A DNA stretch of 64,000 nt from an uncultured Actinomycetota bacterium (lineage in GTDB: Bacteria > Actinomycetota > Actinomycetes > DATJPE01): positions 466,713 through 530,712 of the forward strand of contig CAWFYH010000004.1 of NCBI GenBank assembly GCA_963819985.1, given 5' to 3'. Under the pieces are notes generated by a model. That model ran no database searches. It was given only the letters and a program-made list of their open reading frames with translations, and was not told the DNA's origin. Position 1 is the first letter of the stretch. Every line of letters starts with the position of its first letter. A program made the position numbers and the translations under genes. Below, piece by piece: positions 2 through 47,460 of the stretch.

Positions 2-268
2 GAGTCGTGCGGCAAGTGCACGCCGTGCCGCGTGGGGTCCGTACGCGGCACCGAGGTCATCGACCGGATCAGACAAGGGAAGGACAGGGAGGCCAACCTG
101 GTGCTGCTGGAGGATTTGTGCGAGGTGATGACCGAAGGGTCGTTGTGCGCCATGGGAGGACTGACCCCGATGCCGGTGCGCAGCGCGCTGCGCCACTTCC
201 CGGAAGACTTCGGTCCTCAGGACAAGCGTGACGGCAATCCGACCTGGACGGAGGGGCAGGCGCGATGA
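2..268 (+). CDS. fdsB: NAD-dependent formate dehydrogenase beta subunit (NuoF-family flavoprotein), C-terminal part; 5-prime end lies outside the window
   Basis: Frame-2 translation from nt 2 reads ESCGKCTPCR...SLCAMGGLTPMPVRSALRHFPEDF. This is the 4Fe-4S Cys cluster and C-terminus typical of NuoF/FdsB subunits. The stop overlaps the fdsA start (ATGA). Confidence 0.75.
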   Translation, partial: ESCGKCTPCRVGSVRGTEVIDRIRQGKDREANLVLLEDLCEVMTEGSLCAMGGLTPMPVRSALRHFPEDFGPQDKRDGNPTWTEGQAR

Positions 269-3138
269 CACTACTGGAGCAGCCCGGTCTGCTGACCGAG
301 CCCGACCTCGGCACGCCCCCCGCCCCGGGTGAGGCCGCCGGTGAGACGTCGGTCGAGCTCACCGTCGACGGCCTGCCCGTCGCGGTCGCCCCCGGCACCT
401 CAGTGATGCGGGCCGCGGCGCTGGCCGGGGTCGATGTGCCGAAGCTGTGCTCGACCGACCGGCTCGACGCGTTCGGCTCTTGCCGGATGTGTCTGGTCGA
501 GATCGAGGGCGTCAAGGGCACCCCGGCGTCCTGTACGACACCCGTCGCATCCGGCATGGTCGTACGCACGCAGTCCCAGAAGGTGGACCGGCTGCGCCGC
601 GGCGTCGTCGAGCTCTATCTGTCCGACCACCCCGCCGACTGTGCCGGTGACGGCCGCTGCGAGCTGCACGGCATGGCCGAGCGGGTCGGTGTCAGTGACG
701 TGCGCTACGGCAGAGACGGGCACAACCACCTGCACGAGCACGCGGATCACTCCAACCCCTACTTCGACTACGACCCGAAGGCCTGCATCGTCTGCTCGCT
801 GTGTGTCCGCGCCTGCGACGACATCCAGGGCACGTTCGCCCTCACCATTCAGGGTCGCGGCTTCGACTCTCGGATGTCAGCCGGCACGGCCATCGACGAC
901 TTCTTCAGCTCCGAGTGCGTGTCCTGCGGTGCCTGCGTCCAGGCGTGCCCAACCGACGCGTTGCAAGAACGCAGCATCGTCGAGCTCGGCATGCCGACGC
1001 GAACCGTCCTGACCACCTGCGGATATTGCGGTGTCGGCTGCACGTTCAAAGCAGAGCTGCGCCGCGATGGCGGTGGCGACGAGCAGCTGGTGCGGATGGT
1101 CCCCTACAAGGAGGGCGGCGCCAACGAAGGCCACTCCTGCGTCAAGGGTCGGTTCGCCTACGGCTACGCGGCGCACCCCGACCGCGTGCTCAAGCCGCGG
1201 ATGCGCGAGAACATCACCGACCCGTGGCGCGAGGTGGAGTGGGACGAGGCGATCTCCTTCGTCGCACACCGGATGCGGGAGATCCAACAGCTGCATGGGC
1301 CAGGTTCGATCGGTGCAATCGCGTCGTCTCGCTGCACGGCCGAAGAAGTCTTCGTCATGCAGAAACTCGTGCGAGCAGTGTTCGGCAACAACAACGTCGA
1401 CACCTGCGGCCGGGTGTGCCACTCACCGACCGGCTACGGCCTCAACCAGACGTTCGGAACGTCGGCCGGCACCCAGGACTTCCCCTCCGTCGACGAGACC
1501 GACGTCATGCTCGTCATCGGCGCCAACCCAACCGATGCGCACCCGGTCTTCGGGTCTCGGATGAAACGAAGACTGCGGCAAGGTGCGAAGTTGATCGTGG
1601 TCGACCCGCGGCGGACAGACCTGGTGCGCTCACCGCACCTCCGAGCCGACTATCACCTGCCTGTGCGGCCGGGCACGAACGTCGCTGTGGTCAACGCGTT
1701 CTCCCACGTCGTGGTCACCGAAGGCCTGGTCGACGAGGAATTCGTTTCGACCCGTTGCGAGGGGTTCGCCGACTGGGCGTTGTTCATCGCCGAGCCCGAG
1801 CACAGCCCCGAGGCGGTCGAGGAGATCACCGGCATCCCGGCAGCCGATCTGCGCGCCGCCGCCCGGCTCTACGCCTCGGCGAGAAACGCAACCATCTACT
1901 ACGGACTCGGCGTCACCGAGCACAGTCAGGGTTCGACCATGGTGATGGGCATGGCCAACCTGGCGATGGCCACTGGCAACATCGGCCGCTCCGGTGTCGG
2001 CGTGAACCCGTTGCGCGGGCAGAACAACGTCCAGGGCTCCTGCGACATGGGCTCTTTCCCGCACGAGTACCCCGGCTACCGCCACGTCGGCGACGACGAC
2101 GTTCGCGGCATCTTCGAGCGCGCCTGGGGCGTACCACTGCACGCGGAGCCGGGCTTGCGGATCCCTAACATGTTCGACGCCGCCATCGACGGAACGTTCC
2201 GTGCGTTGTTCGTACAGGGCGAGGACATCGCTCAGTCCGACCCGAATCTCAATCACGTGCGCGCCGCGCTCAGCAGCCTCGACCTGCTCGTCGTGCAGGA
2301 CCTGTTTGAGGTCGAGACGTCCAAGTTCGCGCACGTGCTGTTGCCTGGCACGTCGTTCCTCGAGAAGGACGGCACGTTCATCAACTCCGAGCGGCGCATC
2401 AATCGGGTCCGCCCGGTCATGGAGCCCAAGTGCGGAAAGCAGGAGTGGGAGGTCACGTGCGAGATCGCGCTGGCTATGGGCTACTCGATGCACTACGACG
2501 ACGCCAGCCAGATCATGGACGAGATCGCCATGACGACGCCCACCTTCGCTGGTGTGTCGTTCGACCTGCTCGACCGGGTCGGCAGCGTGCAGTGGCCGTG
2601 CAACAGCGCGGCGCCACTCGGTACGCCGGTGATGCACGTCGACGAGTTCGTTCGTGGCAAGGGCCGTTTCGTCGAGACAACCTATGTCCCGACCCTGGAG
2701 CGAACGACCCGTCGGTTCCCCCTCATCCTGACCACCGGTCGGATCCTGTCGCAGTACAACGTCGGCTCGCAGACCAGACGCACCGACAACGTGACCTGGC
2801 ACGATCGCGACGTGCTTGAGCTTCACCCGCATGACGCCGAGGACCGCGGCATCAGCGACGGCGATCTCGTCACACTGACCAGCCGCGTCGGGACGACCAC
2901 TGTGCAAGCCAAGGTCGCGGAGCGGATGCCGGTCGGCGTCTGCTACACGACCTTCCACCACCCGGAGACTGGCGCGAACGTCATCACCACCGAGCACTCC
3001 GACTGGGCCACGAACTGCCCCGAGTACAAGGTCACCGCTGTGCAGGTGGAGCTCGCCCACCCGCGCACCGCGGGTGAGGCGGTGGGTGTCGAGGCGCGGC
3101 ACGTACCTGCCCGTTCGGGGGCCGGACTCGGTGACTGA
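265..3138 (+). CDS. fdsA: formate dehydrogenase alpha subunit (NuoG-like 2Fe-2S/4Fe-4S N-terminus plus molybdopterin oxidoreductase domains)
   Basis: 957-aa ORF. N-terminal CRMCLVEIEGV (2Fe-2S), CxxCxxC ferredoxin motifs, and a molybdopterin oxidoreductase body (GANPTDAHPV) with a C-terminal MopB_CT-like domain. Sits between fdsB-like and fdsD-like genes. Confidence 0.9.
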   Translation: MTLLEQPGLLTEPDLGTPPAPGEAAGETSVELTVDGLPVAVAPGTSVMRAAALAGVDVPKLCSTDRLDAFGSCRMCLVEIEGVKGTPASCTTPVASGMVVRTQSQKVDRLRRGVVELYLSDHPADCAGDGRCELHGMAERVGVSDVRYGRDGHNHLHEHADHSNPYFDYDPKACIVCSLCVRACDDIQGTFALTIQGRGFDSRMSAGTAIDDFFSSECVSCGACVQACPTDALQERSIVELGMPTRTVLTTCGYCGVGCTFKAELRRDGGGDEQLVRMVPYKEGGANEGHSCVKGRFAYGYAAHPDRVLKPRMRENITDPWREVEWDEAISFVAHRMREIQQLHGPGSIGAIASSRCTAEEVFVMQKLVRAVFGNNNVDTCGRVCHSPTGYGLNQTFGTSAGTQDFPSVDETDVMLVIGANPTDAHPVFGSRMKRRLRQGAKLIVVDPRRTDLVRSPHLRADYHLPVRPGTNVAVVNAFSHVVVTEGLVDEEFVSTRCEGFADWALFIAEPEHSPEAVEEITGIPAADLRAAARLYASARNATIYYGLGVTEHSQGSTMVMGMANLAMATGNIGRSGVGVNPLRGQNNVQGSCDMGSFPHEYPGYRHVGDDDVRGIFERAWGVPLHAEPGLRIPNMFDAAIDGTFRALFVQGEDIAQSDPNLNHVRAALSSLDLLVVQDLFEVETSKFAHVLLPGTSFLEKDGTFINSERRINRVRPVMEPKCGKQEWEVTCEIALAMGYSMHYDDASQIMDEIAMTTPTFAGVSFDLLDRVGSVQWPCNSAAPLGTPVMHVDEFVRGKGRFVETTYVPTLERTTRRFPLILTTGRILSQYNVGSQTRRTDNVTWHDRDVLELHPHDAEDRGISDGDLVTLTSRVGTTTVQAKVAERMPVGVCYTTFHHPETGANVITTEHSDWATNCPEYKVTAVQVELAHPRTAGEAVGVEARHVPARSGAGLGD

Positions 3139-3142
3139 CACT

Positions 3143-3448
3143 ATGACTGAGGCGGCTGATCCGCCGCATTTGCCCTCCTACGTGCGGCTCGCGAACGAGA
3201 TCGCTGTGCAGTTCCCCCAGCTCTCTGAGGACGACGCGGCGGATGCGGTCGCGGCGCACATCCGCCGGTTCTGGGATCCGCGGATGCGGGCCGGGCTGCA
3301 CAAGCACCTCGCCGCCGGTGGTGCCGATCTGCTGCCGATCTCCCGGGCGGCCGCGACACTGCTGGACTCAGGTAGCGGCCGGCTAGGCATCCACGCTCGC
3401 CGAACGCCGGGAAAGTGTGCGTTCAGCGGCATCCCCCACGATTACTAG
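3143..3448 (+). CDS. fdsD: formate dehydrogenase delta subunit (FdsD-like accessory protein)
   Basis: ATG at 3143, 5 nt after the fdsA stop. RLANEIAVQF...HIRRFWDPRMR matches the FdsD signature (RMANQIA...KFWEPRMR). The longer 3074 ORF start overlaps fdsA and is less likely. Confidence 0.6.
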   Translation: MTEAADPPHLPSYVRLANEIAVQFPQLSEDDAADAVAAHIRRFWDPRMRAGLHKHLAAGGADLLPISRAAATLLDSGSGRLGIHARRTPGKCAFSGIPHDY

Positions 3449-3461
3449 ACTGCTCGAGCCC

Positions 3462-3534
3462 GCCCTCGTAGCTCAGGGGATAGAGCAACGGTTTCCTAAA
3501 CCGTGTGTCGGCAGTTCGATTCTGCCCGGGGGCA
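3462..3534 (+). tRNA. tRNA-Arg (anticodon CCT)
   Basis: 73-nt cloverleaf read by hand. Acceptor GCCCTCG/CGGGGGC (one G-U), D-arm GCTC-AGGGGATA-GAGC, anticodon arm ACGGT-TTCCTAA-ACCGT (CCT at 3495-3497), T-arm GGCAG-TTCGATT-CTGCC, discriminator A. CCA is not encoded. Confidence 0.85.
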
Positions 3535-3651
3535 CAAGCACCCGACTGGCAACGTCGGACCCAGTTCGGGGACCATCCTCCGGGCACGCCAACGCCGGGG
3601 ACCGTGCCTGGGCGCAGGCCCTGAGATCCACGGTCTGTTGGCGGTAGATTC

Positions 3652-3972
3652 TTGGCCGAGACAGCCAGAGGGGCTGGAACGCCGTGCAAGCTTGCAGGTG
3701 TCCGCAGCTCCCGGGTCCGCGACACCACCACCGCCTCTGAGGGTCTTCGGACGTTCGTCCCGCTAACTGTCATCGACTTCCTCGAGCGCGCTGCGTTGGT
3801 CTACTCAGACCGCGTCGGCGTCGTTGACGAGCCTGATCAACCGGCGATGTCGCTGGGTTCGTGGACCTACTGGCAGTTCGCTGACGCGGCCGGCTCCCAA
3901 GCCGCAGTCCTCGACCGTGCCGGTTGCCCGGCGGCGCCGTGCCGACCATCGACTGCGACCTCTATCACGTGA
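3652..3972 (+). pseudogene. truncated remnant of an AMP-dependent acyl-CoA synthetase (FadD-like) gene, N-terminal ~100 codons only
   Basis: The translation contains PLTVIDFLERAALVYSDRVGVVDEP...SWTYWQFADAAGSQAAVLDRAG, the typical N-terminus of fatty-acid-CoA ligases. The frame ends after 106 aa with no AMP-binding core. It lies between a tRNA and the nar operon. Confidence 0.4.
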
Positions 3973-4016
3973 CCCCCCACCCGCACGGGCAAAGCAGGGC
4001 CAGGTCCCGCTCCGGA

Positions 4017-4036
4017 TCAGGGACCAAAGTCCCTGA
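4017..4036. promoter_or_regulatory. DosR/DevR-type palindromic box (TCAGGGACCAAAGTCCCTGA) upstream of narG, with a degenerate second half-site at 3994-4012
   Basis: 20-bp near-perfect palindrome GGGAC-N4-GTCCC matching the DevR/DosR consensus (TTSGGGACTWWAGTCCCSAA). It is centred ~45 bp upstream of the narG GTG start. A second GGGCC-AG-GTCCC element lies 20 bp upstream. Confidence 0.5.
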
Positions 4037-4069
4037 CGAGCCAGCGTCGGGGAATGGGAGGGTGGGCTG

Positions 4070-7000
4070 GTGACCTATCGAGCCACCGACTCCCCGTCCG
4101 TCGGCGGCGCCGACGGCCCGCTTACCGACGCCCTGTTGAAGACGGGGCGTTTCTTCACCAGATGGGACGAGACCGACGACGGCCGTGCCGTCTTTCGCGA
4201 AGGTGGCCGCAAGGGCGACGTCTTCTATCGAGACCGATGGAGTCACGACAAGGTCGTCCGCTCGACGCACGGTGTCAACTGCACCGGCTCCTGTTCATGG
4301 AAGGTCTACGTCAAGGACGGGATCATCACCTGGGAGACCCAGCAGACCGACTACCCCACGACGGGCCCACACAGCCCGGAGTACGAGCCACGCGGCTGCC
4401 CGCGCGGCGCAGCATTCAGCTGGTACACCTACTCCCCCACCAGGGTGCGCTACCCCTACGTGCGCGGCGTCCTTGTCGAGATGTACCGCGAAGCGAAGTC
4501 GCGGCTGAAGGACCCGGTCCTCGCCTGGGCCGACGTCGTCGGAGACCCCGAGAGGCGCCGCCGCTATCAGCAGGCCCGCGGCAAGGGCGGCCTCGTACGG
4601 ACGACCTGGGATGAGTCAGTAGAGATCGCTGCCGCTGCTCACGTGCACACCATCAAGACGTACGGCCCCGACCGTTGCGCAGGATTCTCACCGATCCCGG
4701 CGATGTCGATCGTCTCGCACTGCATCGGAACGCGGTTCATCCAGCTCATTGGCGGGGTCATGACCTCGTTCTACGACTGGTATGCCGACCTGCCCGTGGC
4801 CAGCCCCCAGGTCTTCGGCGACCAGACCGACGTCCCTGAGTCGGGAGACTGGTGGGACGCGACCTATCTGATGATGTGGGGCTCCAACGTCCCCGTCACC
4901 AGAACCCCGGATGCCCACTGGATGACCGAGGTCCGCTATCGCGGCACCAAGGTCGTCAGCGTCAGCCCCGACTATGCCGACAACACCAAGTTCGCCGACG
5001 AGTGGCTACCCGCGCAGGCCGGCACGGATGCGGCACTGGCCATGGCGATGGGGCACGTCATCCTGCGGGAGTACCTCGTCGACCGGCAGGTACCGTTCTT
5101 TCACGACTACGTGCGCCAATACACCGACCTGCCGTTCCTCGTCACGTTGACTGAACGGGACGGCGCCTACGTGCCCGGCAAGAACCTCACAGCCGCCGAC
5201 CTGGGCGAAACCGGCGAGGGGGCGCAGTTCAAGACCGTGCTGCTCGACGCGGCCAACGGCGATCCGGTGGTGCCCAACGGATCTCTGGGGTTCCGCTACA
5301 CCGACTCCGGTGTCGGAAAGTGGAATCTCGACCTCGAGGACGTCACCCCAGCGCTGTCGGTGCGTGACGCGTCCGGTGACAGCAGCGTCGCTGAGGTGCT
5401 GCTGCCGTCGTTCGAGTCGGCTGACGGCACGGGCGCGGTCATGCACCGAGGAGTGCCCACCCGAACTGTCAATGGTCACCTCGTCACGACCGTCTATGAC
5501 CTGATGCTTGCCCAGTACGGCGTCGCGCGCGACGGCCTGCCCGGAGCTTGGCCGACCGGATACGACGACGCCGGCACCCCCTACACACCCGCGTGGCAGG
5601 AGGCCATCACCTCCGTTCCCGCGCAGGCCGCCACGCGGATCGCCCGGGAGTTCGCGACCAACGCCGAGCAGTCCGGCGGTCGATCGATGATCATCATGGG
5701 TGCAGGAATCTGCCAGTGGTTCCACGGTGACGCCACCTACCGCGCCGTACTGGCCATGTTGATGCTGACCGGCTGCATGGGTCGCAACGGTGGCGGCTGG
5801 GCGCACTACGTCGGGCAGGAGAAGTGCCGCCCGATCACCGGATGGATCTCCCTCGCCAACGCGATGGACTGGAGCCGGCCACCTCGCACCAACCCCGGGA
5901 CCTCGTTCTGGTACATGCACACCGACCAGTGGCGCTTCGACGGCTACCAGGCCGATGCCCTGGCCTCCCCCCTGGCCGAAGGGCACCTCACCGGCCTGCA
6001 CACCGCAGACACGATCGCGAAGTCCGCCCGGCTCGGCTGGATGCCCTTCTACCCTCAGTTCGACCGCAACCCCCTGGACCTGGCCGATGATGCCTTGGCG
6101 GCAAACCCGGACGCCCCCATCGATCACGTGGTCAAGGAGCTGACCGAGGGCACCCTGAAGTTCGCTGTTGACGACGTCGACGCGCCGGAGAACTGGCCAC
6201 GCACGCTGGTGCTGTGGCGAGCCAACCTGCTGGGCTCGTCTGCAAAGGGCAACGAGTACTTCTTGAAGTACTTGCTCGGGACCCACTCCAACGTCACCGC
6301 AGCCGAGCCCGGGCCGGAGGTGCGGCCGAGCGAGGTGACTTGGCGCGACGACATCCCTGAGGGCAAGCTCGACCTGCTGGTGAGCGCGGACTTCCGGATG
6401 ACGTCCACGACCCTGCTGTCCGACATCGTCTTCCCCGCCGCCACCTGGTATGAGAAGCACGATCTGTCCAGCACGGACATGCACCCCTTCGTGCACGCCT
6501 TCTCACCTGCGATCGATCCACCCTGGGAAGCCAAGAGCGACTTCGACACCTTCCATGCAATCGCTCGCAAGATCTCCCAGATGGCGAAGACGCATCTGGG
6601 AACCCGCAAGGACCTGGTCAGCGTCGCGCTGCTGCACGACACCCCCGGGGAGACGGCGCAGCCCGGCGGGCACGCGCTCGACTGGGCCAAGGGCGAGGTT
6701 GCGCCGATCCCAGGCAAGACGATGCCCGCCCTGACCATCGTCGAACGTGACTACACCGCGATCGCCGACAAGCTGGGGGCCGTCGGCCCGCTCGCGGAGA
6801 CGCTCGGTTTCCCGGTCAAGGGCGTGACCTACGACGTCAGCCACCAGGTTGAGCAACTCAGCAAGCTCGGTGGCGTCATGCTCGGTGGGGCGGCCGACGG
6901 ACGACCCGCCATCGACACGGACACCAAGATGGCAGAAGCCATCTTGACCTTCAGCGGCACCACCAACGGCGAGCTCGCTGCCCAGGGGTTCCGCACGTTG

Positions 7001-7780
7001 GAGAAGCGCGTCGGCAAGCCGCTGTCCGACCTCGCAGAGGGCTCGGAGGAGAAGCGGATCACTTTCGCCGACACTCAAGCGCGCCCGGTCGCGGTCATCA
7101 CCTCCCCCGAGTGGTCCGGATCGGAGACCGGCGGTCGCCGCTATGCACCGTTCACGGTCAACGTCGAGCGGCTCAAGCCCTGGCACACCCTCACCGGGCG
7201 AATGCACTTCTTCCTCGACCACGACTGGATGCGCGATCTCGGTGAGGCCCTGCCGACCTATCGGCCACCGCTCGACCTGCACCGACTTCTGGGTGAACCC
7301 GAGCTTGGTGAGGACGGTTCCAAGCAGATCACCGTCAGATATCTGACCCCGCACTCGAAGTGGTCCATCCACTCCGAGTACCAAGACAACTTGTTCATGC
7401 TCTCGTTATCCCGCGGCGGACCGACCGTATGGATGAGCCCTCAGGACGCAGCGGTCATCGAAGCGAAGGACAACGACTGGGTGGAATGCGTGAACGCCAA
7501 CGGCATCATGGTGCTAAGGGCGATCGTGACCCACAAGATGCCGCCCGGGATCGTCTTCGTCTATCACGCGCAGGAACGCACCATCGACGTGCCGAAGACC
7601 GAGCGCACCGGACGCCGCGGTGGCATTCACAACAGCCTGACCCGGCTCCTGATCAAGCCCACCCACCTCATCGGTGGATACGCGCAGCTGTCCTACACGT
7701 TCAACTACCTCGGCCCGACAGGAAACCAGCGGGACATGATCACGACGATCCGCCGGCGCTCCCAGGATGTGACGTACTGA
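4070..7780 (+). CDS. narG: respiratory nitrate reductase alpha subunit
   Basis: 1236 aa. GTG start preceded by GGGAGG. N-terminal GVNCTGSCSWKVYVKDG FeS0 motif and molybdopterin domains. Followed by narH/narI. Confidence 0.93.
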   Translation: MTYRATDSPSVGGADGPLTDALLKTGRFFTRWDETDDGRAVFREGGRKGDVFYRDRWSHDKVVRSTHGVNCTGSCSWKVYVKDGIITWETQQTDYPTTGPHSPEYEPRGCPRGAAFSWYTYSPTRVRYPYVRGVLVEMYREAKSRLKDPVLAWADVVGDPERRRRYQQARGKGGLVRTTWDESVEIAAAAHVHTIKTYGPDRCAGFSPIPAMSIVSHCIGTRFIQLIGGVMTSFYDWYADLPVASPQVFGDQTDVPESGDWWDATYLMMWGSNVPVTRTPDAHWMTEVRYRGTKVVSVSPDYADNTKFADEWLPAQAGTDAALAMAMGHVILREYLVDRQVPFFHDYVRQYTDLPFLVTLTERDGAYVPGKNLTAADLGETGEGAQFKTVLLDAANGDPVVPNGSLGFRYTDSGVGKWNLDLEDVTPALSVRDASGDSSVAEVLLPSFESADGTGAVMHRGVPTRTVNGHLVTTVYDLMLAQYGVARDGLPGAWPTGYDDAGTPYTPAWQEAITSVPAQAATRIAREFATNAEQSGGRSMIIMGAGICQWFHGDATYRAVLAMLMLTGCMGRNGGGWAHYVGQEKCRPITGWISLANAMDWSRPPRTNPGTSFWYMHTDQWRFDGYQADALASPLAEGHLTGLHTADTIAKSARLGWMPFYPQFDRNPLDLADDALAANPDAPIDHVVKELTEGTLKFAVDDVDAPENWPRTLVLWRANLLGSSAKGNEYFLKYLLGTHSNVTAAEPGPEVRPSEVTWRDDIPEGKLDLLVSADFRMTSTTLLSDIVFPAATWYEKHDLSSTDMHPFVHAFSPAIDPPWEAKSDFDTFHAIARKISQMAKTHLGTRKDLVSVALLHDTPGETAQPGGHALDWAKGEVAPIPGKTMPALTIVERDYTAIADKLGAVGPLAETLGFPVKGVTYDVSHQVEQLSKLGGVMLGGAADGRPAIDTDTKMAEAILTFSGTTNGELAAQGFRTLEKRVGKPLSDLAEGSEEKRITFADTQARPVAVITSPEWSGSETGGRRYAPFTVNVERLKPWHTLTGRMHFFLDHDWMRDLGEALPTYRPPLDLHRLLGEPELGEDGSKQITVRYLTPHSKWSIHSEYQDNLFMLSLSRGGPTVWMSPQDAAVIEAKDNDWVECVNANGIMVLRAIVTHKMPPGIVFVYHAQERTIDVPKTERTGRRGGIHNSLTRLLIKPTHLIGGYAQLSYTFNYLGPTGNQRDMITTIRRRSQDVTY

Positions 7781-7811: not shown

Positions 7812-10121
7812 ATGAGGGTCATGGCCCAGATGGGCATGGTGATGAACCTCGACAAGTGCATCGGGTGTCACACCTGCTCGGTCACCTGCAAGCAGACCTG
7901 GACCAACCGGGCTGGGGTGGAGTACGTCTGGTTCAACAACGTCGAGACCCGACCCGGCCAAGGTTATCCGCGCCGCAATGACGACCAAGAGACGTGGAAG
8001 GGTGGCTGGAAGCTCAACCGGCGTGGCCGGTTGGCGCTGCGCTCCGGTGGCCGACTGCGCCGCCTGTTGGGGATCTTCGCCAGCCCGGTGCTACCCGAGC
8101 TCGAGGACTACTACGAGCCCTGGACCTACGACTACGCCAACTTGATCGATGCCCCGCTCGGTGATGACTTCCCGGTCGCTCGACCGAAGTCGCTGATCAC
8201 CGGCCAAGACACCAAGGTCACCTGGTCGTCGAACTGGGACGACAACTTGGGTGGCGCAACTGAGTACGGCCACCTCGACCCGATCGTGGAGAAGCTCCGG
8301 GCCGAGTCCTCGGACAAGATCAAGTTCGAGTTCGAGCAGACCTTCATGTTCTATCTGCCACGAATCTGCGAGCACTGTCTGAATCCTGCCTGTCTGGCCT
8401 CATGTCCCTCGGGGGCGATCTACAAGCGGACTGAAGACGGCATCGTGCTGGTGGACCAGGACAAATGCCGAGGGTGGCGACAGTGCATCACCGCCTGTCC
8501 GTACAAGAAGATCTACTTCAACCACAAGACAGGCAAGGCCGAGAAGTGCACGTTCTGCTACCCCCGCATCGAGGTCGGCCTGCCCACCGTGTGTGCCGAG
8601 ACCTGCGTGGGGCGGCTGCGTTACATCGGGTTGTTCCTCTACGACGCAGACAAGGTCACGGCGGCAGCATCCCAGCCCGATGACCAGGACCTGTACGAGG
8701 CGCACCTCGACCTGATCCTGGATCCGACTGACCCCGAGGTGATTGCGGGTGCTCGGGCTGAGGGCATCCCGGACGACTGGATGGATGCCGCCCGCAGGTC
8801 GCCGGTCTATGCCCTCGCGAAGAAGTACAAGGTCGCGCTGCCGCTGCATCCCGAGTTCCGGACCATGCCGATGGTTTGGTACGTCCCGCCGTTGTCGCCG
8901 ATCGTCGACCTGCTGAGGGACCAGGGGCACGACGCGGAGGACCAGGGCAACCTGTTCGGCGCCATCGACGCCTTGCGCATCCCGGTCGAATACCTCGCCG
9001 AGCTGCTCAGCGCCGGTGATACCGAGGTCATCACCACGGTGCTGCAGCGGTTGGCCGCGATGCGCTCGTACATGCGGGGCATCACCCTCGGGGGTGAGGG
9101 AGATGAGTCGATAGCCGAGTCCGTCGGCATGTCCGGTGGCGGCTTGTACGAGATGTATCGACTGATGGCGATCGCCAAGTACGAGGACCGCTACGTCATC
9201 CCCAAGGCCCACGAGGAGCAAGCCCACGACCTCGAGGAGATGGGCTGCTCCGTCGACTTCTACGACGAGGGACCAGGAGCGGGCATGTTCGGCGAGGCGT
9301 CTGGGCGACCGGTCCCCGTGGCGGTCGAGACCTTCGAGGCCCTCAAACGTCGACAGACCTCCGAAGGCATCGCATCCGCGGAGTCCATGCACGGTCGGGT
9401 CAATCTGCTCAACTGGGACGGCGTGGGGGTGCCCGTCGGACTGTTCCCCGGAGTGCAACGACGTGAGCGGCAGCGACGACGCTGGAGACGGCCGATGAGC
9501 ACCCGAGTGGTCCACCAGGTCGCTGCCCGGTGCCTGGACCACCCGCAAGGAGCGTTGCTGGCTTGCCTCCCGGATCTGCAGTCTGCCGTCTGGGTGCTGC
9601 CAGCTCGCCAACGCGACTCTTTCCAACCGTTGCTGGACCACCTGACTGAAACGCCGCTTCCGGTCCTTCAACGCGAATACGTCGACGTGTTCGACATGAC
9701 CAAGAAGCACGCGCTGTACCTTTCGTACTGGACCGACGGCGACACCCGGCGGCGCGGCGAGGTGCTCGCGGCGTTCAAGGCGCGCTACCGCGCGAGCGGC
9801 TGGTTGGTCGACACCCACGGCGAGCTGCCGGACTACCTACCGATGGTCCTCGAGTACGCAGCCCTCGCCGACCCGGTCGATGGGCCTGTGCTGCTTCAGG
9901 AGTACCGAGCGAGCCTGGAGCTGCTCAAGTTCGCGCTGCGCGCCGCGCAGACACCGTATGCAGGTGTGCTCGATGCCGTCTGCGACACCCTTCCGGGTGC
10001 CTCGCCGAAGGATGCTGCGGCGGTCCACCGGCTAGCCGCAGAAGGCCCCCCACGCGAGCAGGTCGGACTCGATGCTTACGATCCGCGATTGCTGTCGATG
10101 GCCGCTGGAGGGTCCCGATGA
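7812..10121 (+). CDS. narH: respiratory nitrate reductase beta subunit with a NarJ (Mo-cofactor assembly chaperone) region fused in frame
   Basis: The N-terminal 561 aa are classic NarH (four Cys clusters CIGCHTC..., CEHCLNPAC..., CRGWRQC..., CTFCYPR...). There is no stop before an in-frame ATG at 9495. After it comes a ~208-aa NarJ-like region (LQREYVDVFD...GELPDYLPMVLEYAAL). The stop overlaps the narI start. Confidence 0.85.
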   Translation: MRVMAQMGMVMNLDKCIGCHTCSVTCKQTWTNRAGVEYVWFNNVETRPGQGYPRRNDDQETWKGGWKLNRRGRLALRSGGRLRRLLGIFASPVLPELEDYYEPWTYDYANLIDAPLGDDFPVARPKSLITGQDTKVTWSSNWDDNLGGATEYGHLDPIVEKLRAESSDKIKFEFEQTFMFYLPRICEHCLNPACLASCPSGAIYKRTEDGIVLVDQDKCRGWRQCITACPYKKIYFNHKTGKAEKCTFCYPRIEVGLPTVCAETCVGRLRYIGLFLYDADKVTAAASQPDDQDLYEAHLDLILDPTDPEVIAGARAEGIPDDWMDAARRSPVYALAKKYKVALPLHPEFRTMPMVWYVPPLSPIVDLLRDQGHDAEDQGNLFGAIDALRIPVEYLAELLSAGDTEVITTVLQRLAAMRSYMRGITLGGEGDESIAESVGMSGGGLYEMYRLMAIAKYEDRYVIPKAHEEQAHDLEEMGCSVDFYDEGPGAGMFGEASGRPVPVAVETFEALKRRQTSEGIASAESMHGRVNLLNWDGVGVPVGLFPGVQRRERQRRRWRRPMSTRVVHQVAARCLDHPQGALLACLPDLQSAVWVLPARQRDSFQPLLDHLTETPLPVLQREYVDVFDMTKKHALYLSYWTDGDTRRRGEVLAAFKARYRASGWLVDTHGELPDYLPMVLEYAALADPVDGPVLLQEYRASLELLKFALRAAQTPYAGVLDAVCDTLPGASPKDAAAVHRLAAEGPPREQVGLDAYDPRLLSMAAGGSR

Positions 10122-10864
10122 GCGTCTTGTTGTGGGGCGTACTCCCCTACATCGTCCTGGTCACCCTGATCGGTGGAACCATCTGGCGCTATCGGTATGA
10201 CCAGTTCGGCTGGACGACCCGTTCCTCGCAGTTGTACGAGTCCAGGTTGCTTCGCATCGGCAGCCCCCTGTTCCACTTCGGGATCCTGTTCGTACTCGTC
10301 GGACACATAGTCGGGCTGGTGATCCCCGAGAGCTGGACCGAGGCGTTCGGGGTGAGTGAGCACCTCTACCACGTGAACGCCCTTGTTGTCGGCGGCATCG
10401 CAGGCTTCTGCACGCTCGCCGGAGTGCTGATCCTCGTCTACCGAAGGCGGACCACCGGTCCGGTGTTCATGGCCACGACCAAGAACGACAAGGCCATGTA
10501 CGTCGCACTCGTCGCGGCGATCGTCTTGGGACTCCTCGCGACCCTGTCCGGCTCCGGCGTCGTGAATGAGGCCTACAACTACCGCGAGTCGGTGTCAGTG
10601 TGGTTCCGCTCGTTGTTCATCCTGCAGCCGAACGTCGACGCGATGGCAGCCGCTCCGTGGGAGTTCCACCTCCACGTGCTGGTGGCGATGCTGCTGTTCG
10701 CAATGTGGCCGTTCACCCGGCTGGTGCACGCCTTCACCGCACCGCTGCACTACGCCTTCCGTCCCTACATCGTCTACCGCAGCCGGGACGCGTCCAGCGC
10801 CCCGGGGGCGAGCGCTCCACGCCGCGGTTGGGACCCCGTCGGCACCAAAGACCGAGGACACTGA
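10118..10864 (+). CDS. narI: respiratory nitrate reductase gamma subunit (dihaem cytochrome b)
   Basis: 248 aa with five predicted TM helices. N-terminus LLWGVLPYIVLVTLIGGTIWRYRYDQFGWTTRSSQ is typical of NarI. ATGA overlap with the preceding gene. Confidence 0.9.
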   Translation: MSVLLWGVLPYIVLVTLIGGTIWRYRYDQFGWTTRSSQLYESRLLRIGSPLFHFGILFVLVGHIVGLVIPESWTEAFGVSEHLYHVNALVVGGIAGFCTLAGVLILVYRRRTTGPVFMATTKNDKAMYVALVAAIVLGLLATLSGSGVVNEAYNYRESVSVWFRSLFILQPNVDAMAAAPWEFHLHVLVAMLLFAMWPFTRLVHAFTAPLHYAFRPYIVYRSRDASSAPGASAPRRGWDPVGTKDRGH

Positions 10865-10905: not shown

Positions 10906-12117
10906 ATGACTGAGACCGCAGACGCCGTTGACCTCCGTACGGGCCAGACCCGCCAGCTGATCCTGGCCACCTGGGCCTTCGCGATCTCCTTCTGGGCGTG
11001 GAACCTGATCGGCCCGCTAGGCGTTGCCTACACGCAGAAGTTCGACCTCTCCTCCGGTCAGAAGTCGCTGCTGATCGCGCTCCCGGTTCTCGTTGGCTCC
11101 TTGGGCCGGATTCCCGCCGGCACGCTGACGGACCGCTTCGGCGGCCGGGTCATGTTCAGCGCCCTCCTGGTGATTTCCATCCCACCAGTCATCATGGTGA
11201 TGATCGCCGGGAACATCGACTCCTGGCCGCTGCTGCTGGTCTCGGCCTTCCTGCTGGGCATCGCCGGAACCACGTTCGCCGTCGGCATCCCCTTCGTGAG
11301 CCGGTGGTTCGTGCCATCCCGCAAGGGGTTCGCCACCGGCATCTTCGGTGCGGGCATGGGCGGGACAGCCCTGTCTTCATTCTTCACCCCGCGCTTCGTC
11401 AACTGGTTCGGCTACACCCAGACGCATCTCATCATCGCCGCCGCGTTGGCCGCGACGGCGGTTCTCTGCTGGGCGATGATGGCCAACTCGCCGAGCTTCG
11501 AGCCAAACACAGACCCGGTGGTCCCCAAGTTCGTGGCAGCGATCAAGCTGCCCGTGACTTGGCAGCTGTCCTTCCTGTACGCAATCACCTTTGGTGGCTT
11601 CGTCGCGTTCTCCACCTACCTTCCGACCTACCTGAAGGACGTCTACGACTTCGGGCTCACCCAGGCAGGCACGCGCACCGCAGGTTTTGCCATTGCAGCC
11701 GTTGTTGCGCGACCGATCGGTGGCGTGCTCTCGGACCGCTTCCACCCCAAGCCGGTCGTCATGACCTCCCTGATCGGTGCAGCAGTCATGGCCCTTGTCG
11801 TCTCCACCGTTCCTCCACCCGAACTTGCCGCGGGAGCATCCTTCATCGCGATGGCCTTCTTCCTCGGTATTGGTACCGGAGGGGTGTTCACCTGGGTCGC
11901 CCTGCGATCGCCTGCTGCCCGGGTCGGCTCGGTAAGCGGCATAGTGGGAGCAGCCGGCGGACTGGGCGGCTTCTTCCCACCGCTGGTGCTCGGTGCGACG
12001 TACAACGAGATCACCCACCGCTACACCGTGGGTCTCCTCCTCCTGTTCATCACGGCCACTGTCGCAGCGGTCTTTGTCGCGATCAAGCTCCGGCAGGAGG
12101 AGCCGGCCAAGGTCTGA
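10906..12117 (+). CDS. narK: nitrate/nitrite transporter, MFS NNP family (NarK/NarU-like)
   Basis: 403-aa 12-TM MFS. The FWAWNLIGPLGVAY and GRIPAGTLTDRFGGR motifs match NarK-type porters. Immediately downstream of narGHJI. Confidence 0.85.
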   Translation: MTETADAVDLRTGQTRQLILATWAFAISFWAWNLIGPLGVAYTQKFDLSSGQKSLLIALPVLVGSLGRIPAGTLTDRFGGRVMFSALLVISIPPVIMVMIAGNIDSWPLLLVSAFLLGIAGTTFAVGIPFVSRWFVPSRKGFATGIFGAGMGGTALSSFFTPRFVNWFGYTQTHLIIAAALAATAVLCWAMMANSPSFEPNTDPVVPKFVAAIKLPVTWQLSFLYAITFGGFVAFSTYLPTYLKDVYDFGLTQAGTRTAGFAIAAVVARPIGGVLSDRFHPKPVVMTSLIGAAVMALVVSTVPPPELAAGASFIAMAFFLGIGTGGVFTWVALRSPAARVGSVSGIVGAAGGLGGFFPPLVLGATYNEITHRYTVGLLLLFITATVAAVFVAIKLRQEEPAKV

Positions 12118-15506: not shown

Positions 15507-16196
15507 CTAGAAAGTGCTCGGAGCGACAAATACGTGACCCGCCGTCTCGGGGTCGAGCTCCGCGTACTCCATGCCCGAACCGACGAGCACTCCGCCCGCC
15601 GAGGTGGTCACTTTCACGACTTCGCCAGGCCGCACACCTGCGCGGCGTAGCGACGCCATCAGCGCAGCATCAGTCTGCAGCGGCTCACCGATGCGCCGGA
15701 CGACGACCCGGTGTGTCTCGTCCACGGCAGCTGACATCAGCGTGACCAAGGGCTCATCGTCCCTGCCTGGCTCCTCAGCACCCAGCTCGGCCAGGCCAGG
15801 GATCGGATTGCCGTACGGCGAATTCGTCGGGTGCTCAAGCAGCTCGAGCAGCCGTCGTTCGACGGCCTCGGACATCACGTGTTCCCACCTGCACGCCTCG
15901 GCATGGACGTCTTCCCAGGCCATCCCGATGACATCAACGAGCAAGCACTCGGCGAGGCGGTGCTTGCGCATCACTCGAGTCGCGAGCGCGCGCCCCTGCT
16001 CGGACAGCTCCAGATGTCGATCGCCCTCGACGGTGACCAGCTTGTCGCGTTCCATCCGCGCCACGGTCTGGCTGACCGTCGGCCCGCTCTGGCCCAGCCG
16101 TTCGGCGATTCGTGCACGCAGCGGGACGATCCCCTCTTCCTCCAGCTCGAAGATCGTGCGGAGGTACATCTCCGTGGTGTCGATGAGGTCGCTCAC
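15507..16196 (-). CDS. ideR: iron-dependent transcriptional repressor IdeR (DtxR family)
   Basis: 230 aa from GTG 16196 (VSDLIDTTEMYLRTIFELEEEGIVPLRARIAERL...). Near-identical architecture to M. tuberculosis IdeR, including the C-terminal SH3-like domain. Confidence 0.9.
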   Translation of the reverse strand: MSDLIDTTEMYLRTIFELEEEGIVPLRARIAERLGQSGPTVSQTVARMERDKLVTVEGDRHLELSEQGRALATRVMRKHRLAECLLVDVIGMAWEDVHAEACRWEHVMSEAVERRLLELLEHPTNSPYGNPIPGLAELGAEEPGRDDEPLVTLMSAAVDETHRVVVRRIGEPLQTDAALMASLRRAGVRPGEVVKVTTSAGGVLVGSGMEYAELDPETAGHVFVAPSTF

Positions 16197-16212
16197 GAGG
16201 GGACGACTCCAA

Positions 16213-17676
16213 ATGGATGAGGACTTCGGGGACCTGGCGCCGCCTATCCTCACACGCGATGGCGACGACCGGAACCGAGTTGCGCCGGTCGTGTCGGTGC
16301 GCGACGGTCGATCGGTGAGCCCGGCCATCCACTGGTTTCGTCGAGATCTCCGTCTCGCTGACAACCCCGCCCTGCTGTCTGCTGCAGCGGCAGGCGCCGG
16401 CGACGTGCTGGCCCTGTTCGTCCTGGACCCGCTGCTCTGGCGTCGGAGTGGTCCCGTCCGCCAGGCCTACCTGGTCGATTCCCTGCAGGCGCTCAGGGCG
16501 TCGCTCGACGGACGGCTGCTCGTGCGGCACGGCGATCCCACCCGCGTGGTGCCGGAGGTGGCAGACCAGTTCGCCGCCACGTCCGTCCACGCGGCGGCAG
16601 ACTTTGGTCCGTACGGCAGCCGCCGCGACGCCACCGTTAGCGAGGCCCTGGGGGATGCCTTCGTACGTGACGGATCGCCCTATGCCGTCGCACCCGGGAG
16701 GGTCCACAAGCCGGACGGGACGCCGTACCGCGTCTATACCCCCTTCTATCGGGCGTGGCGCGCTCACGGCTGGCGCGCTCCCGCGCCCTCCGCGGTTGAC
16801 GCGAACGTGACCTTCGCAACGCCGGAAGGCGACGACGGGGTCCCCGAGGCACCTAGCGAAAACCGTGCACAGCTACCGAAGGCCGGGGAGCAGGCCGCCT
16901 ACGAGCGCTGGATGAACTTCTGCGAGCGCGGGCTGGACGACTATGCGCAGTCACGTGATCGACCCGACCGGGCCGGAACGTCCGGCCTCAGTGCCGCACT
17001 GAAGTGGGGCGAGATCCATCCGCGCACGTTGCTGACCCACCTCGGGGACTCCCGCTCCCACGACACGTTCCGAAAGGAACTGGCGTGGCGCGAGTTCTAT
17101 GCCGATGTCCTGCACCACAACCCGGGCTCCGCCCACTGGAACCTGCGCTCAGACCTCTCGCACATCGAGGTCGACGAAGGTCCACAGGCCAACGAACGAT
17201 TCGAGGCCTGGGCCTCTGGCCGGACCGGCTATCCCTTCGTCGACGCGGGTATGCGACAGCTGCTGGCCGAGGGCTGGATGCACAACCGCGTGCGCATGGT
17301 GGTGGCGTCCTTCCTGGTGAAGGACCTGCATCTTGCGTGGCCTCGGGGCGCCCGGCATTTCATGCGGTGGCTCCGCGACGGAGACCTGGCATCCAACCAG
17401 CACGGCTGGCAGTGGGTAGCCGGGACCGGCACGGATGCGGCTCCGTACTTCCGCGTGTTCAATCCGGTCAGCCAGGGTCGGCGCTTCGATCCCGACGGCG
17501 ACTATGTCCGGAGGTACGTCCCCGAGCTCGTCGAACTGGCCGGGCCGGCCGTGCACGAACCCTGGAAAACACCGGGCGGCGCACCCCACGGATACCCCGA
17601 ACGGATCGTTGATCACGGCCTCGAGCGACAGGAGGCGCTCGCCCGCTACGACCGCGCCCGGCGGGCTTCTGGATAG
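16213..17676 (+). CDS. phr: deoxyribodipyrimidine photolyase (cryptochrome/photolyase family)
   Basis: The C-terminal part of ORF 15571 carries the FAD-binding domain (WREFY...GWMHNRVRM...WQWVAGTGTDAAPYFRVFNP). The 5-prime 640 nt of that ORF are antisense to ideR and not coding. ATG 16213 is the first start after ideR; alternative GTG starts at 16291/16315 sit just before the IHWFRRDLRL motif. Confidence 0.8.
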   Translation: MDEDFGDLAPPILTRDGDDRNRVAPVVSVRDGRSVSPAIHWFRRDLRLADNPALLSAAAAGAGDVLALFVLDPLLWRRSGPVRQAYLVDSLQALRASLDGRLLVRHGDPTRVVPEVADQFAATSVHAAADFGPYGSRRDATVSEALGDAFVRDGSPYAVAPGRVHKPDGTPYRVYTPFYRAWRAHGWRAPAPSAVDANVTFATPEGDDGVPEAPSENRAQLPKAGEQAAYERWMNFCERGLDDYAQSRDRPDRAGTSGLSAALKWGEIHPRTLLTHLGDSRSHDTFRKELAWREFYADVLHHNPGSAHWNLRSDLSHIEVDEGPQANERFEAWASGRTGYPFVDAGMRQLLAEGWMHNRVRMVVASFLVKDLHLAWPRGARHFMRWLRDGDLASNQHGWQWVAGTGTDAAPYFRVFNPVSQGRRFDPDGDYVRRYVPELVELAGPAVHEPWKTPGGAPHGYPERIVDHGLERQEALARYDRARRASG

Positions 17677-23216: not shown

Positions 23217-23591
23217 ATGAAGCGCCTGCTCGCCTTCAGCGTCCTCGCCGCAGCAGCCGTCGTGCCTGCCGTGGTTGGGCTCGCCGGAAACGCATCCTTC
23301 GCGGAGACAGTCCCGGTGCGCGTCCCAGCGCAGGCCCAAGTCGAGGATGACCCCGGTAGCAAGTCAGCCCACCTCGAACCCGGCGATGACGGAGACGACT
23401 CCAGGCACCACGAAGACGACTCCAGACACCACGAAGACGACTCCAGACACCACGAAGACGACTCCAGACACCACGAAGACGGCGACTCCAGACACAATGG
23501 GGACGACTCCAGACACAGCGAAGGCGACGACTCCAAACACCACGAAGACGACGACTCCAGACACAGTGGGGAGGGCTCAGGCCACTCGTGA
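23217..23591 (+). CDS. secreted His/Asp-rich tandem-repeat protein
   Basis: GAGGAG RBS. Signal peptide MKRLLAFSVLAAAAVVPAVVGLAGNASFA. Then about seven copies of the 8-aa unit DDSRHHED (and variants). Stop overlaps the start of the sensor kinase gene. Confidence 0.7.
   Translation: MKRLLAFSVLAAAAVVPAVVGLAGNASFAETVPVRVPAQAQVEDDPGSKSAHLEPGDDGDDSRHHEDDSRHHEDDSRHHEDDSRHHEDGDSRHNGDDSRHSEGDDSKHHEDDDSRHSGEGSGHS
23394..23570 (+). repeat. 24-bp tandem repeat array (~7 copies; gacgactccagacaccacgaagac) inside the His-rich protein gene
   Basis: Head-to-tail 24-nt units visible directly in the sequence, in frame. Copies vary at a few positions (aggcac/agacac, cacgaa/aatggg/agcgaa). Confidence 0.85.
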
Positions 23592-25024
23592 CCGGGATGT
23601 CTGAGAGCACGGGATCCGTAGAGACCCCTTCGGTCTCCTCGGCACTTCCTGCTCCCCCGAACCGGGCCTCCCCATGGGTGGTGGTGACCGACGGCCCCGG
23701 CCGCCCGGCACTGGCCCATCAGCCCGTGCGGATGCGCAGAATCTTCATTCAGGTCATCGCGGCTGCGGCCGTGGTCTTCGTGGCCGTGGCTGTGGTGGGG
23801 GTCTTCGCAAGCCGTCGCGTGGCGGAACGACAGTCGGTGAATGCTGCCGCCCAGACGACTGACCTGCTTGCCGACTCAGTCGTTCAGCCGGCGATTGAGG
23901 ACGGCCTGCTGACCGGTTCGGCGGCCGCGCTCGACAGGCTCGACCAAGCGGTCCGCTCGTCCGTACTCGGCTCGAGAGTGGTGAGGGTCAAAGTCTGGAC
24001 CCCGGAGGGGCAGATCATCTACTCCGATGAGCCAAGGATCGTCGGCGAAACCTTCGACCTCGGGGAGGAGGAACGCTCGGTTCTGGAGAGACCGACGACG
24101 CACGCCGAGGTCAGCGATCTCACCCGCCCGGAGAACCGCTACGAAACGGGGGGAGGCAAGCTCCTCGAGGTCTACCGGCCGATCTGGACGCCGAGCGGGC
24201 AGCCGCTCTTGTTCGAGACATACATGCCCTACGACTCGGTAACGACAAGGACCGGTGAGCTGTGGCGCGGGTTCGCCGGGATCACCCTGGCCAGCCTGCT
24301 GCTCCTGATCGCGCTCATGTTGCCCATTCTGTGGCGGCTACTGGACCAGGTGAACAAGGCCCGAGATCAGCAGGTGGCGCTACTCGAGCATGCCGTCGAC
24401 GCATCCTCCGACGAGAGGAGGCGCATCGCGGCGACCCTTCACGACGGCGTTGTCCAGGAGTTGGCGGCGGCGTCCTTCGCGGTGTCCGGGGCTGCAGAGC
24501 GAGCCACAACGGACGGCAGACGGGACCTTGCAGATGTGCTGACAGGCGCGGCGGCCGCTGTCCGAGGGACTATCGGAGGATTGCGCTCACTCCTTGTCGA
24601 TATCTACCCGCCGAGTCTGCGCACGGCTGGCCTGGTCGCGGCGTTGACCGACCTCGCAGGCACTGTGCAGACCCGGGACATCGACGTCCACCTGGACCTC
24701 CCTGCGGACAATATGACCGGACTTGATGAGGCGCAGGAGCGCCTCGTGTTCCGGGTCGCACAGGAGGCGTTGAGAAACACGGCGAGCCACGCGGCAGCAG
24801 CTCGCGTCGACCTGGCGCTCGTCGTAGCCGGGCACAGAGTGCTGCTCTCAGTGTGCGACGACGGCGTGGGCTTCGACGTCAACGCCGCCCTCCGCAGTCC
24901 GCCCCAAGGCCACCTGGGATTGAGGGTCATGAGGGACCTCGCCGCACAGTCCGGTGCCCGTCTGGAAGTTTCTTCAGCGCCAGGAGCAGGCACCTGTTGG
25001 AAGCTGACGATTCCCCGCCGATGA
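23588..25024 (+). CDS. two-component sensor histidine kinase, NarL/DesK-type (HisKA_3 + HATPase) with a periplasmic sensor domain between two TM helices
   Basis: TM1 ~aa 55-75, extracytoplasmic ~150-aa domain, TM2 ~aa 235-255. H-box ERRRIAATLHDGVVQEL and an ATPase domain (GLRVMRDLAAQSGARLEVSSAPGAGT). Overlaps the upstream and downstream genes by 4 nt each. Confidence 0.85.
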   Translation: MTGMSESTGSVETPSVSSALPAPPNRASPWVVVTDGPGRPALAHQPVRMRRIFIQVIAAAAVVFVAVAVVGVFASRRVAERQSVNAAAQTTDLLADSVVQPAIEDGLLTGSAAALDRLDQAVRSSVLGSRVVRVKVWTPEGQIIYSDEPRIVGETFDLGEEERSVLERPTTHAEVSDLTRPENRYETGGGKLLEVYRPIWTPSGQPLLFETYMPYDSVTTRTGELWRGFAGITLASLLLLIALMLPILWRLLDQVNKARDQQVALLEHAVDASSDERRRIAATLHDGVVQELAAASFAVSGAAERATTDGRRDLADVLTGAAAAVRGTIGGLRSLLVDIYPPSLRTAGLVAALTDLAGTVQTRDIDVHLDLPADNMTGLDEAQERLVFRVAQEALRNTASHAAAARVDLALVVAGHRVLLSVCDDGVGFDVNAALRSPPQGHLGLRVMRDLAAQSGARLEVSSAPGAGTCWKLTIPRR

Positions 25025-25656
25025 TCACCATCCTGCTCGCCGACGACCACAGCCTGGTACGCGCCGGGCTCGCTGCACTGCTGGACGGCACCGATGACCT
25101 TCGGGTTGTCGGACAGGCGGAGAACGGTCGACGTGCCGTGGAACTCTCCAGTGACCTCAGACCAGACGTCGTCTTGATGGATCTGTCCATGCCGGTCATG
25201 GACGGAGTCGAGGCGACCAGAGAACTGCTCCGGACCCAGCCGGACAGCATCGTTGTCGTGCTCACCTCCTTCTCGGACCATCAGCGGGTTGGCGATGCGC
25301 TGCGCGCAGGTGCCGTCGGCTATCTCCTGAAGGACTGCGACCCGGGCGACTTGCTGGCCGCTGTGCGCGCCGCAGCACGGGGCCATGCGCCACTGGACCC
25401 GCGAGTAGCCCGAGCCCTCCTTCCCTCGGCCGACGCCGCATCGCCAGCTGCGGGCATCAGCGCCCGCGAGATGCAGGTCCTTCGTCTTGCCGCGCGCGGA
25501 CTCGCCAACAAGCAGATCGGTCGGTCGCTCGGCATCAGCGAACGCACCGTCAAGGCGCATCTAGGGAAAGTGTTTCGACACATCGGCGTGAGCGACCGGA
25601 CGAGCGCAGCGCTGTGGGCACGCGAGCACCTCCCGCCAGAAAACGAAGGGTCCTGA
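25021..25656 (+). CDS. two-component response regulator, NarL/LuxR family
   Basis: MITILLADDHSLVRAGL... receiver with the phospho-acceptor Asp in VVLMDLSMP, and a C-terminal LuxR HTH (EMQVLRLAARGLANKQIGRSLGISERTVKAHL). Confidence 0.9.
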   Translation: MITILLADDHSLVRAGLAALLDGTDDLRVVGQAENGRRAVELSSDLRPDVVLMDLSMPVMDGVEATRELLRTQPDSIVVVLTSFSDHQRVGDALRAGAVGYLLKDCDPGDLLAAVRAAARGHAPLDPRVARALLPSADAASPAAGISAREMQVLRLAARGLANKQIGRSLGISERTVKAHLGKVFRHIGVSDRTSAALWAREHLPPENEGS

Positions 25657-47422: not shown

Positions 47423-47460
47423 GGACTCAGCCAGGAACCCACCCTCGTCGGTGCCGGCAA

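Follow-up and report, generated by a model that had tools for sequence, protein, structure and literature searches.

A DosR/OsdR-type palindrome upstream of the narG operon of an uncultured actinobacterium and its recurrence at actinobacterial nar promoters

Results

The nar operon and its neighbourhood

The DNA studied here, referred to as the window, is a 64-kb stretch from an uncultured actinobacterium that carries a nitrate reductase operon (Table 1). By GroEL, the nearest relatives bearing a name are MAGs labelled Nanopelagicales, Actinomycetes or Kineosporiaceae, and the taxonomic placement relies on GroEL and NarG neighbours alone. A first-pass annotation had named the gene behind the palindrome described below narG, and Pfam agrees. 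narG is followed by narH, narJ, narI and a NarK-family nitrate/nitrite transporter gene, the latter being probably the last gene of the operon. The start of narG is well defined: GTG 4070 is the sole ATG, GTG or TTG codon between the in-frame TGA at 4034-4036 and the conserved N-terminal region of NarG, and the N-terminus read from it aligns with those of homologues.

The narH and narJ genes are separate in the related loci L004 and L082 and fused in the window, with the junction at about 9440..9497. Near the tail of the window NarH, the +1 frame reads ...DDAGDGR*, its TGA overlapping the narJ ATG at 9495. Because this frame ends at the narJ ATG, the fusion looks like a 1-nt frameshift, due either to an assembly error or to a recent mutation.

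Between the fdhA-like gene and narG lie a tRNA-Arg(CCT) gene and a short ORF (3652..3972). The similarity of this ORF to acyl-CoA synthetases is weak, no PDB match was found for it, and its sequence suggests that it is probably a gene remnant. The neighbourhood hints at arrival of the nar operon by rearrangement beside the tRNA gene. Neither an integrase nor a clear att repeat nor a GC anomaly was seen.

Two gene models elsewhere in the window deserve mention. On the minus strand, 46439..48165 holds two neighbouring ORFs, each covering about half of an MFS_1 domain, and the downstream one (46439..47422) ends with a cyclic-nucleotide-binding domain. The alternatives here are a transporter that has been split or frameshifted and an MFS transporter unusually fused to a cNMP-binding domain. 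The photolyase ORF 15571..17676 encodes 701 aa with photolyase domains from residue 252 only, so that either its start codon is over-extended or it has an unannotated N-terminal extension.

Table 1 Features of the nar region of the window and DosR-like boxes at related genes
Feature	Position	Strand	Remarks
fdhA-like gene	265..3138		Upstream of the box
tRNA-Arg(CCT) gene	3462..3535		Between the fdhA-like gene and narG
ORF, probable gene remnant	3652..3972		After tRNA-Arg(CCT); residues 34-63 weakly like acyl-CoA synthetase N-terminus, NCBIfam E=0.0016
CGGACGTTCGTCCC	3748..3761	.	Only other core match with ≤1 mismatch in the window, also upstream of narG; probably chance
Claimed second site, GGGCC-AG-GTCCC	3994..4010	.	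4/10 core mismatches, chance level
DosR/OsdR-type box, TCAGGGAC-CAAA-GTCCCTGA	4017..4036	.	Core 4020..4033; centre -43.5 from GTG
GGGAGGG, Shine-Dalgarno reading	4055..4061	+	8 nt before GTG; overlaps GAGGGT; read from sequence
-10-like hexamer GAGGGT (putative)	4058..4063	+	A at position 2, T at position 6; +32 from box centre
narG, nitrate reductase alpha subunit	4070..7780	+	1236 aa; Pfam; one database protein 100% identical
narH reading into narJ	7812..10121	+	One 769-aa ORF; narJ own ATG at 9495
narI, gamma subunit	10118..10864	+	
NarK-family nitrate/nitrite MFS transporter	10906..12117	+	TIGR00886 E=5e-61, under curated cut-off
DosR-like boxes near Pyridox_ox_2	L025: 1812, 2958; L062: 5152, 5217, 5836		

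A single DosR-type palindrome lies upstream of narG

Directly upstream of narG we find the inverted repeat TCAGGGACCAAAGTCCCTGA, the two arms of which (TCAGGGAC and GTCCCTGA) pair perfectly over 8 bp each around a 4-bp CAAA spacer (8-4-8). Its core matches GGGAC-N4-GTCCC at 10/10 positions, and the whole site matches the published 20-bp DosR consensus TTSGGGACTWWAGTCCCSAA (PMC2275270, PMC2703886) at 15/20. It has the sequence of a Dev box as defined in M. tuberculosis, i.e. an 18-20-bp inverted repeat with the core and with the critical G, G, G and C in both halves (PMC3177182): the GGGxC positions named in that work as critical for DevR binding are unbroken in both half-sites. As GTG 4070 is the only possible start codon, the centre of the palindrome (4026.5) can be placed 43.5 bp upstream of it. 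The DosR/DevR-type palindrome that the first-pass annotation had put directly before narG is thus present, with its core intact and correctly placed for narG control.

This is the only perfect GGGAC-N4-GTCCC in the window. Dinucleotide shuffles give an expectation of 0.26 perfect cores per 64 kb, 25% of shuffles holding one, from which the chance of a perfect core in a 250-bp promoter region is about 1e-3. With up to one mismatch allowed, two core matches were seen in the window versus 7 expected from shuffles. The second of these, CGGACGTTCGTCCC, lies 272 bp upstream of the main box; reading of the sequence yielded no -10-like partner for it, and its match is a probable chance occurrence.

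The palindrome had been described as one of a pair, with a degenerate second DosR site at 3994..4010. That part of the description falls. The stretch reads GCAGGGCCAGGTCCCGC, in which GGGCC-AG-GTCCC (3997..4008) has a spacer of 2 bp, not 4. In the best DosR register it carries four mismatches in the ten core positions, a level that about 1,900 positions of the window reach, so it is indistinguishable from chance. This register keeps the GGGCC left half-site alone, with its centre 23 bp from that of the main box; for the site as a whole the distance is 23-25 bp. In M. tuberculosis, every DevR regulon promoter has 2-4 tandem boxes, which are spaced 21 bp centre to centre, in helical phase, and of which the secondary ones are sometimes very degenerate (PMC3177182). 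At most, to judge from its sequence, 3994..4010 could be an isolated GGGCC half-site serving as a weak secondary cooperative site. Beside 4017..4036, no second box above chance was seen in the registers from -21 to -23 or in that at +21, with the proviso that secondary sites can be degenerate.

Sites for other regulators were also sought. Neither Rex nor GlnR sites were found in the narG upstream region. A CRP-like TGCGA-N6-TCACG at 3954..3969, with two mismatches, was rejected as being at chance level (6 such matches in the window versus 20 expected).

The box recurs at nar promoters of other actinobacteria

Upstream of narG, none of the loci that we collected could be aligned with the window; over the nar genes themselves, DNA identity reaches 76% at most. 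Because no locus was close enough for promoter alignment, we examined recurrence of the motif at other nar promoters. A first set comprised 80 actinobacterial narG loci from species-representative genomes. All palindromes with 5-mer half-sites and spacers of 0-10 bp were enumerated, allowing up to one mismatch, which gave 10,139 patterns; the foreground was the 250 bp preceding narG, or preceding a co-directional narK where one lies upstream of it, and the background was the remaining locus DNA. GGGAC-N4-GTCCC ranked first of the 10,139 for enrichment (14 matches in 26 kb versus 52 in 948 kb, p=2e-9). Shifted forms of the same palindrome were also high in the ranking, and perfect boxes were 54-fold enriched in promoter regions. 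The result was replicated in another 80 loci, an independent set from metagenomes, where 13 matches fell in promoter regions and 22 elsewhere (9.5-fold, p=4e-8), and where perfect boxes were found six times in promoter regions versus once elsewhere.

Box-bearing loci include those of Nocardioides, Amycolatopsis, Pseudonocardia, Nakamurella, Actinomadura, Microbispora, Micromonospora and a Mycobacterium MAG. Among the closer relatives by NarG sequence, the box is present in L082 (85% identity) and L086 (83%) and absent in L081, L084 and most of L001-L011. At L084, a metagenome contig with a NarG 84% identical to that of the window, narG overlaps the end of an upstream gene for an HTH_20 (ArsR-like) regulator, and the region (2333..3004) holds no DosR-like box; this layout suggests that a near neighbour controls nar in another way.

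DosR-like boxes also lie in intergenic DNA upstream of Pyridox_ox_2 (PF12900) genes adjoining nar in L025 (Phytoactinopolyspora) and L062 (Micromonospora). In other genomes, recurrence of the kind expected for a regulon was thus seen for nar/narK promoters and for these Pyridox_ox_2 genes. The window itself holds no usp, hspX or nitroreductase-type genes and has the one perfect box.

The box keeps a fixed spacing to a -10-like hexamer

We then lined up 30 box-bearing nar promoters (that of the window and 29 others) by their box centres, taking the gene side as downstream. Of the TANNNT hexamers in +11..+80, 5/11 are at +29..+33 (p=6e-4). When only A at position 2 and T at position 6 are demanded (NANNNT), 17 of the 29 promoters other than that of the window have a hexamer that starts at one of two neighbouring positions, +31 (9 sites) and +32 (8 sites), which form a sharp peak. 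Examples are TAGGTT (L004), TATGGT (L092), TAGGGT (L122) and GAGGGT (twice, in L053); the window counterpart is GAGGGT at +32. By these counts, the GGGAC-N4-GTCCC box predominates among the palindromes of actinobacterial nar promoters and stands at a fixed spacing to a -10-like element, a modest addition to what is known.

Two loci show the arrangement in compact form. In L004, within a divergent intergenic region of 60 bp, the box is followed by 19 nt, TAGGTT, 7 nt and the narG ATG; in L092 the order is box, 21 nt, TATGGT, 7 nt and the narG ATG. This layout implies a leaderless narG at both. The window shares the spacing, the -10 elements of L004 and L092 being the better ones. In L082, too, 7 nt separate a TACGGT from the ATG, but the box there is centred at -60.5, off the 19-21-nt spacing.

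At L053 (Microbispora sp. H13382), the region upstream of narK (4632..4760) contains two DosR-like boxes 60 bp apart. The hexamer of the window, GAGGGT, comes after each of them, at +30/+31, and the second box with its flank (GGACCAAGGTCCCTGACG...GGGAGGGT) closely resembles the window promoter.

A predicted leaderless start of narG

In the window, GAGGGT occupies -12..-7 relative to GTG 4070. Should these also be its positions relative to the transcription start, the box centre would lie at -42.5/-43.5, as at M. tuberculosis hspX (-43.5; PMC13486717) and tgs1 (-42.5; PMC3177182). From this geometry between box and hexamer, the predicted transcription start is the G of GTG 4070, in which case the narG mRNA would be leaderless; narG in this lineage is probably leaderless.

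We infer that GAGGGT may work as a promoter element from sequence and spacing, and the hexamer can be read in two ways. The position expected of a Dev box (centre at about -42.5/-43.5, over the -35) is consistent with what we see, but the bases of the hexamer also read as a Shine-Dalgarno sequence, and GAGGGT is the weaker as a -10 for having G, not T, as its first base. Use of GGGAGGG as a Shine-Dalgarno sequence conflicts with a start at 4070 and would need one upstream of about 4050; a start further upstream would leave the box in a repressing position or within the transcript. The sequence GGGAGGGT is common to the window and L053, and at L053 it lies about 35 nt from the start codon. Since this is too distant for a Shine-Dalgarno role, the promoter reading of GAGGGT is favoured. 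Taken alone, what the window and L053 promoters share on the gene side of the box falls short of significance (275 of 2000 shuffles).

The NarL-family systems in the window are unlikely cognates

Two NarL-family two-component systems had been noted in the window by the first-pass annotation (23588..25656 and 60063..62737), and both exist; as cognates of the box they are unlikely. Their response regulators, generic members of the NarL family, show 35-36% identity to DosR of M. tuberculosis (query sequence identical to PDB 3c3w). The best PDB and NCBIfam matches of these regulators are VraR, NarL and MadR, all under curated cut-offs. At K179, K182 and N183, the DNA-contact residues of DosR in the 1ZLK structure, the regulator at 25021..25656 has R, K and A (one kept) and that at 62024..62737 has K, S and N (two kept). 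The kinases show HisKA_3 and HATPase domains, with no GAF domain seen in either. The pairs were rejected as DosRS on identity, contact residues, missing GAF domains and NCBIfam scores.

The 64-kb window encodes no DosR orthologue. Likewise, in the 80 genome loci no DosR-like regulator lies within 6 kb of narG, and no response regulator is found consistently next to box-bearing nar loci.

Discussion

Comparison with known systems

The closest known case is OsdR at narG2 of S. coelicolor, which is a direct published precedent; the Dev boxes of M. tuberculosis come next. OsdR (SCO0204) has a site, AGGGACCTTCGGCCCC, at -53 of the start codon of narG2 (SCO0216), and nar2 transcripts fall in an osdR mutant (Urem et al. 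2016, PMC5069765). There as here, a DevR-like palindrome lies directly upstream of a narGHJI operon, AGGGACCAAAGTCCCT of the window being centred at -43.5 versus -53. A further likeness is that the neighbouring pyridoxamine-oxidase-like SCO0214 is a predicted OsdR target, and that the box occurs upstream of Pyridox_ox_2 in L025 and L062. The sites differ in type: the Streptomyces consensus AGGGCCGATCGGCCCT favours GGGCC/GGCCC, whereas the window site, which matches it at 11/16, is of the mycobacterial GGGAC/GTCCC type. The surroundings differ too, since osdRK and many usp genes lie near nar2 in S. coelicolor and nothing comparable is found in the window.

Dev boxes in M. tuberculosis are found for example at narK2-Rv1738, hspX and tgs1 (Chauhan et al. 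2011, PMC3177182; DosR-RNAP cryo-EM, PMC13486717). The window site has the same core and the same critical G and C positions, would lie at about -43 from the predicted start, over the -35 of a putative weak core promoter, and has its predicted target within nitrate metabolism. The target itself is narK2X in M. tuberculosis and would be the narG operon in the window; narGHJI is not known to be a DosR target in M. tuberculosis. Promoters there have 2-4 boxes in tandem, at intervals of about 21 bp, and the window has one recognisable box. The sites also differ in detail, with C after the left GGGAC in the window where the consensus has T, and with flanks TCA/TGA versus TTS/SAA.

The E. coli narG promoter, with its NarL 7-2-7 and FNR sites, is similar in that a narGHJI promoter is under NarL-family or anaerobic control, as is proposed for the window. 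A TACYYMT heptamer, a 7-2-7 site or an FNR half-site pair is not found in 3536..4069, and the half-sites of the window palindrome are reversed relative to a 7-2-7 site, the G-rich arm coming before the C-rich arm.

Interpretation of the site

Taken together, we consider that 4017..4036 is probably the primary operator of a NarL-family response regulator of the DosR/DevR/OsdR type, which would switch on the narG operon from a start at about 4070. The DosR-type reading made at first pass gains from the ranking of the same box type at the top upstream of nar operons in two independent locus sets, from the M. tuberculosis DosR promoter geometry kept at the site (PMC13486717, PMC3177182) and from the experimental precedent of OsdR at narG2 (PMC5069765). 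The regulator, once phosphorylated (by analogy, under oxygen limitation or in the presence of NO), would bind as a dimer to the two GGGAC half-sites. Placed over the -35 position, with its centre about 43 bp ahead of the transcription start, the dimer would recruit RNA polymerase to a weak core promoter with the -10-like GAGGGT. The narG-narH(J)-narI-narK transcript would have its first nucleotide at the G of GTG 4070 or beside it, giving an mRNA that is leaderless or nearly so. The site, its uniqueness in the window, its recurrence at other nar promoters and the conserved spacing between box and hexamer are observations; from these we infer the binding and identity of the regulator, the signal, activation and the start of transcription at narG.

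Enrichment ties this type of box to nar promoters and says nothing of the protein that binds it. The palindrome could thus be a real operator at an activator-dependent promoter and yet be bound by a regulator that is not an orthologue of DosR or OsdR. This could be a LuxR/NarL dimer that has converged on the same specificity, for which either response regulator of the window might be a candidate, or a helix-turn-helix dimer of unrelated origin. That the window encodes no DosR orthologue, and that its two regulators keep two (62024..62737) and one (25021..25656) of the three DosR contact residues, speaks for such a protein. We nevertheless hold it unlikely: motif, critical bases and -42.5/-43.5 geometry all agree with what is established for DevR and OsdR (PMC3177182, PMC13486717, PMC5069765), the regulators in the window score best, below cut-offs, with MadR, NarL and VraR models and are paired with kinases that have no GAF domain, and no response regulator is consistently encoded beside box-bearing nar loci. 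That the palindrome is a functionless coincidence appears very unlikely. A perfect core is not rare enough to dismiss this outright, with 0.26 expected per 64 kb and one held by 25% of shuffles; many known motifs could have been matched at first reading, and several close NarG relatives do not conserve the site. On the other side stand the position-specific expectation of about 1e-3, arms that reach 8 bp, the top rank of the same motif at nar promoters in two independent sets and a partner hexamer at +32.

Rather than an activator, the palindrome could serve a repressor, as an operator or roadblock below an upstream promoter, or could act in RNA, as a hairpin in the 5' UTR or as the terminator of an upstream transcript. 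The GGGAGGG 8 nt before the GTG is a textbook Shine-Dalgarno sequence that needs a start upstream of about 4050, and the 8-bp GC-rich stem could form in RNA. No sigma-70-like promoter and no terminator-like site was found in 3000..4400; an intrinsic terminator, i.e. a GC-rich hairpin with a T run, was rejected as the stem is followed by CGAGCC. An RNA hairpin or riboswitch at the box was rejected as well: the fold of 3985..4075 is no better than those of shuffles (z=-0.25), the minimum-energy structure leaves the arms unpaired with each other, and no Rfam family matches over the box. The spacing common to 17 other promoters points to the position of an activator, and these other mechanisms are, in our estimation, the least probable of the readings, with very little chance of being correct.

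Implications for nar control in actinobacteria

In the reading as an operator for a DosR/DevR/OsdR-type regulator, the control predicted here is of a known kind, extended to one more, uncultured, actinobacterium, and the nar box does not overturn current understanding. A broader view is possible, though we regard it as rather doubtful: DosR/OsdR-type control of nar may be a widespread and ancient actinobacterial promoter module, in which the box, present in about 15% of actinobacterial-type nar operons, stands 31-32 bp from an unusual nAGGGT/TANNNT -10, with narG leaderless here as well as in L004 and L092, and with GGGAGGG really being the -10 region. The operator reading, if true, extends to many other genera a regulatory link for which experimental evidence is confined to S. 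coelicolor and, as regards narK2, to M. tuberculosis. The arrangement provides a rule for annotating actinobacterial nar promoters (box, 31-32 bp, -10-like hexamer), which also marks a set of probable leaderless narG genes. For the organism of the window, the operator reading, if true, would mean that an uncultured actinomycete turns on nitrate respiration via dormancy-type (DosR-like) signalling by oxygen or NO.
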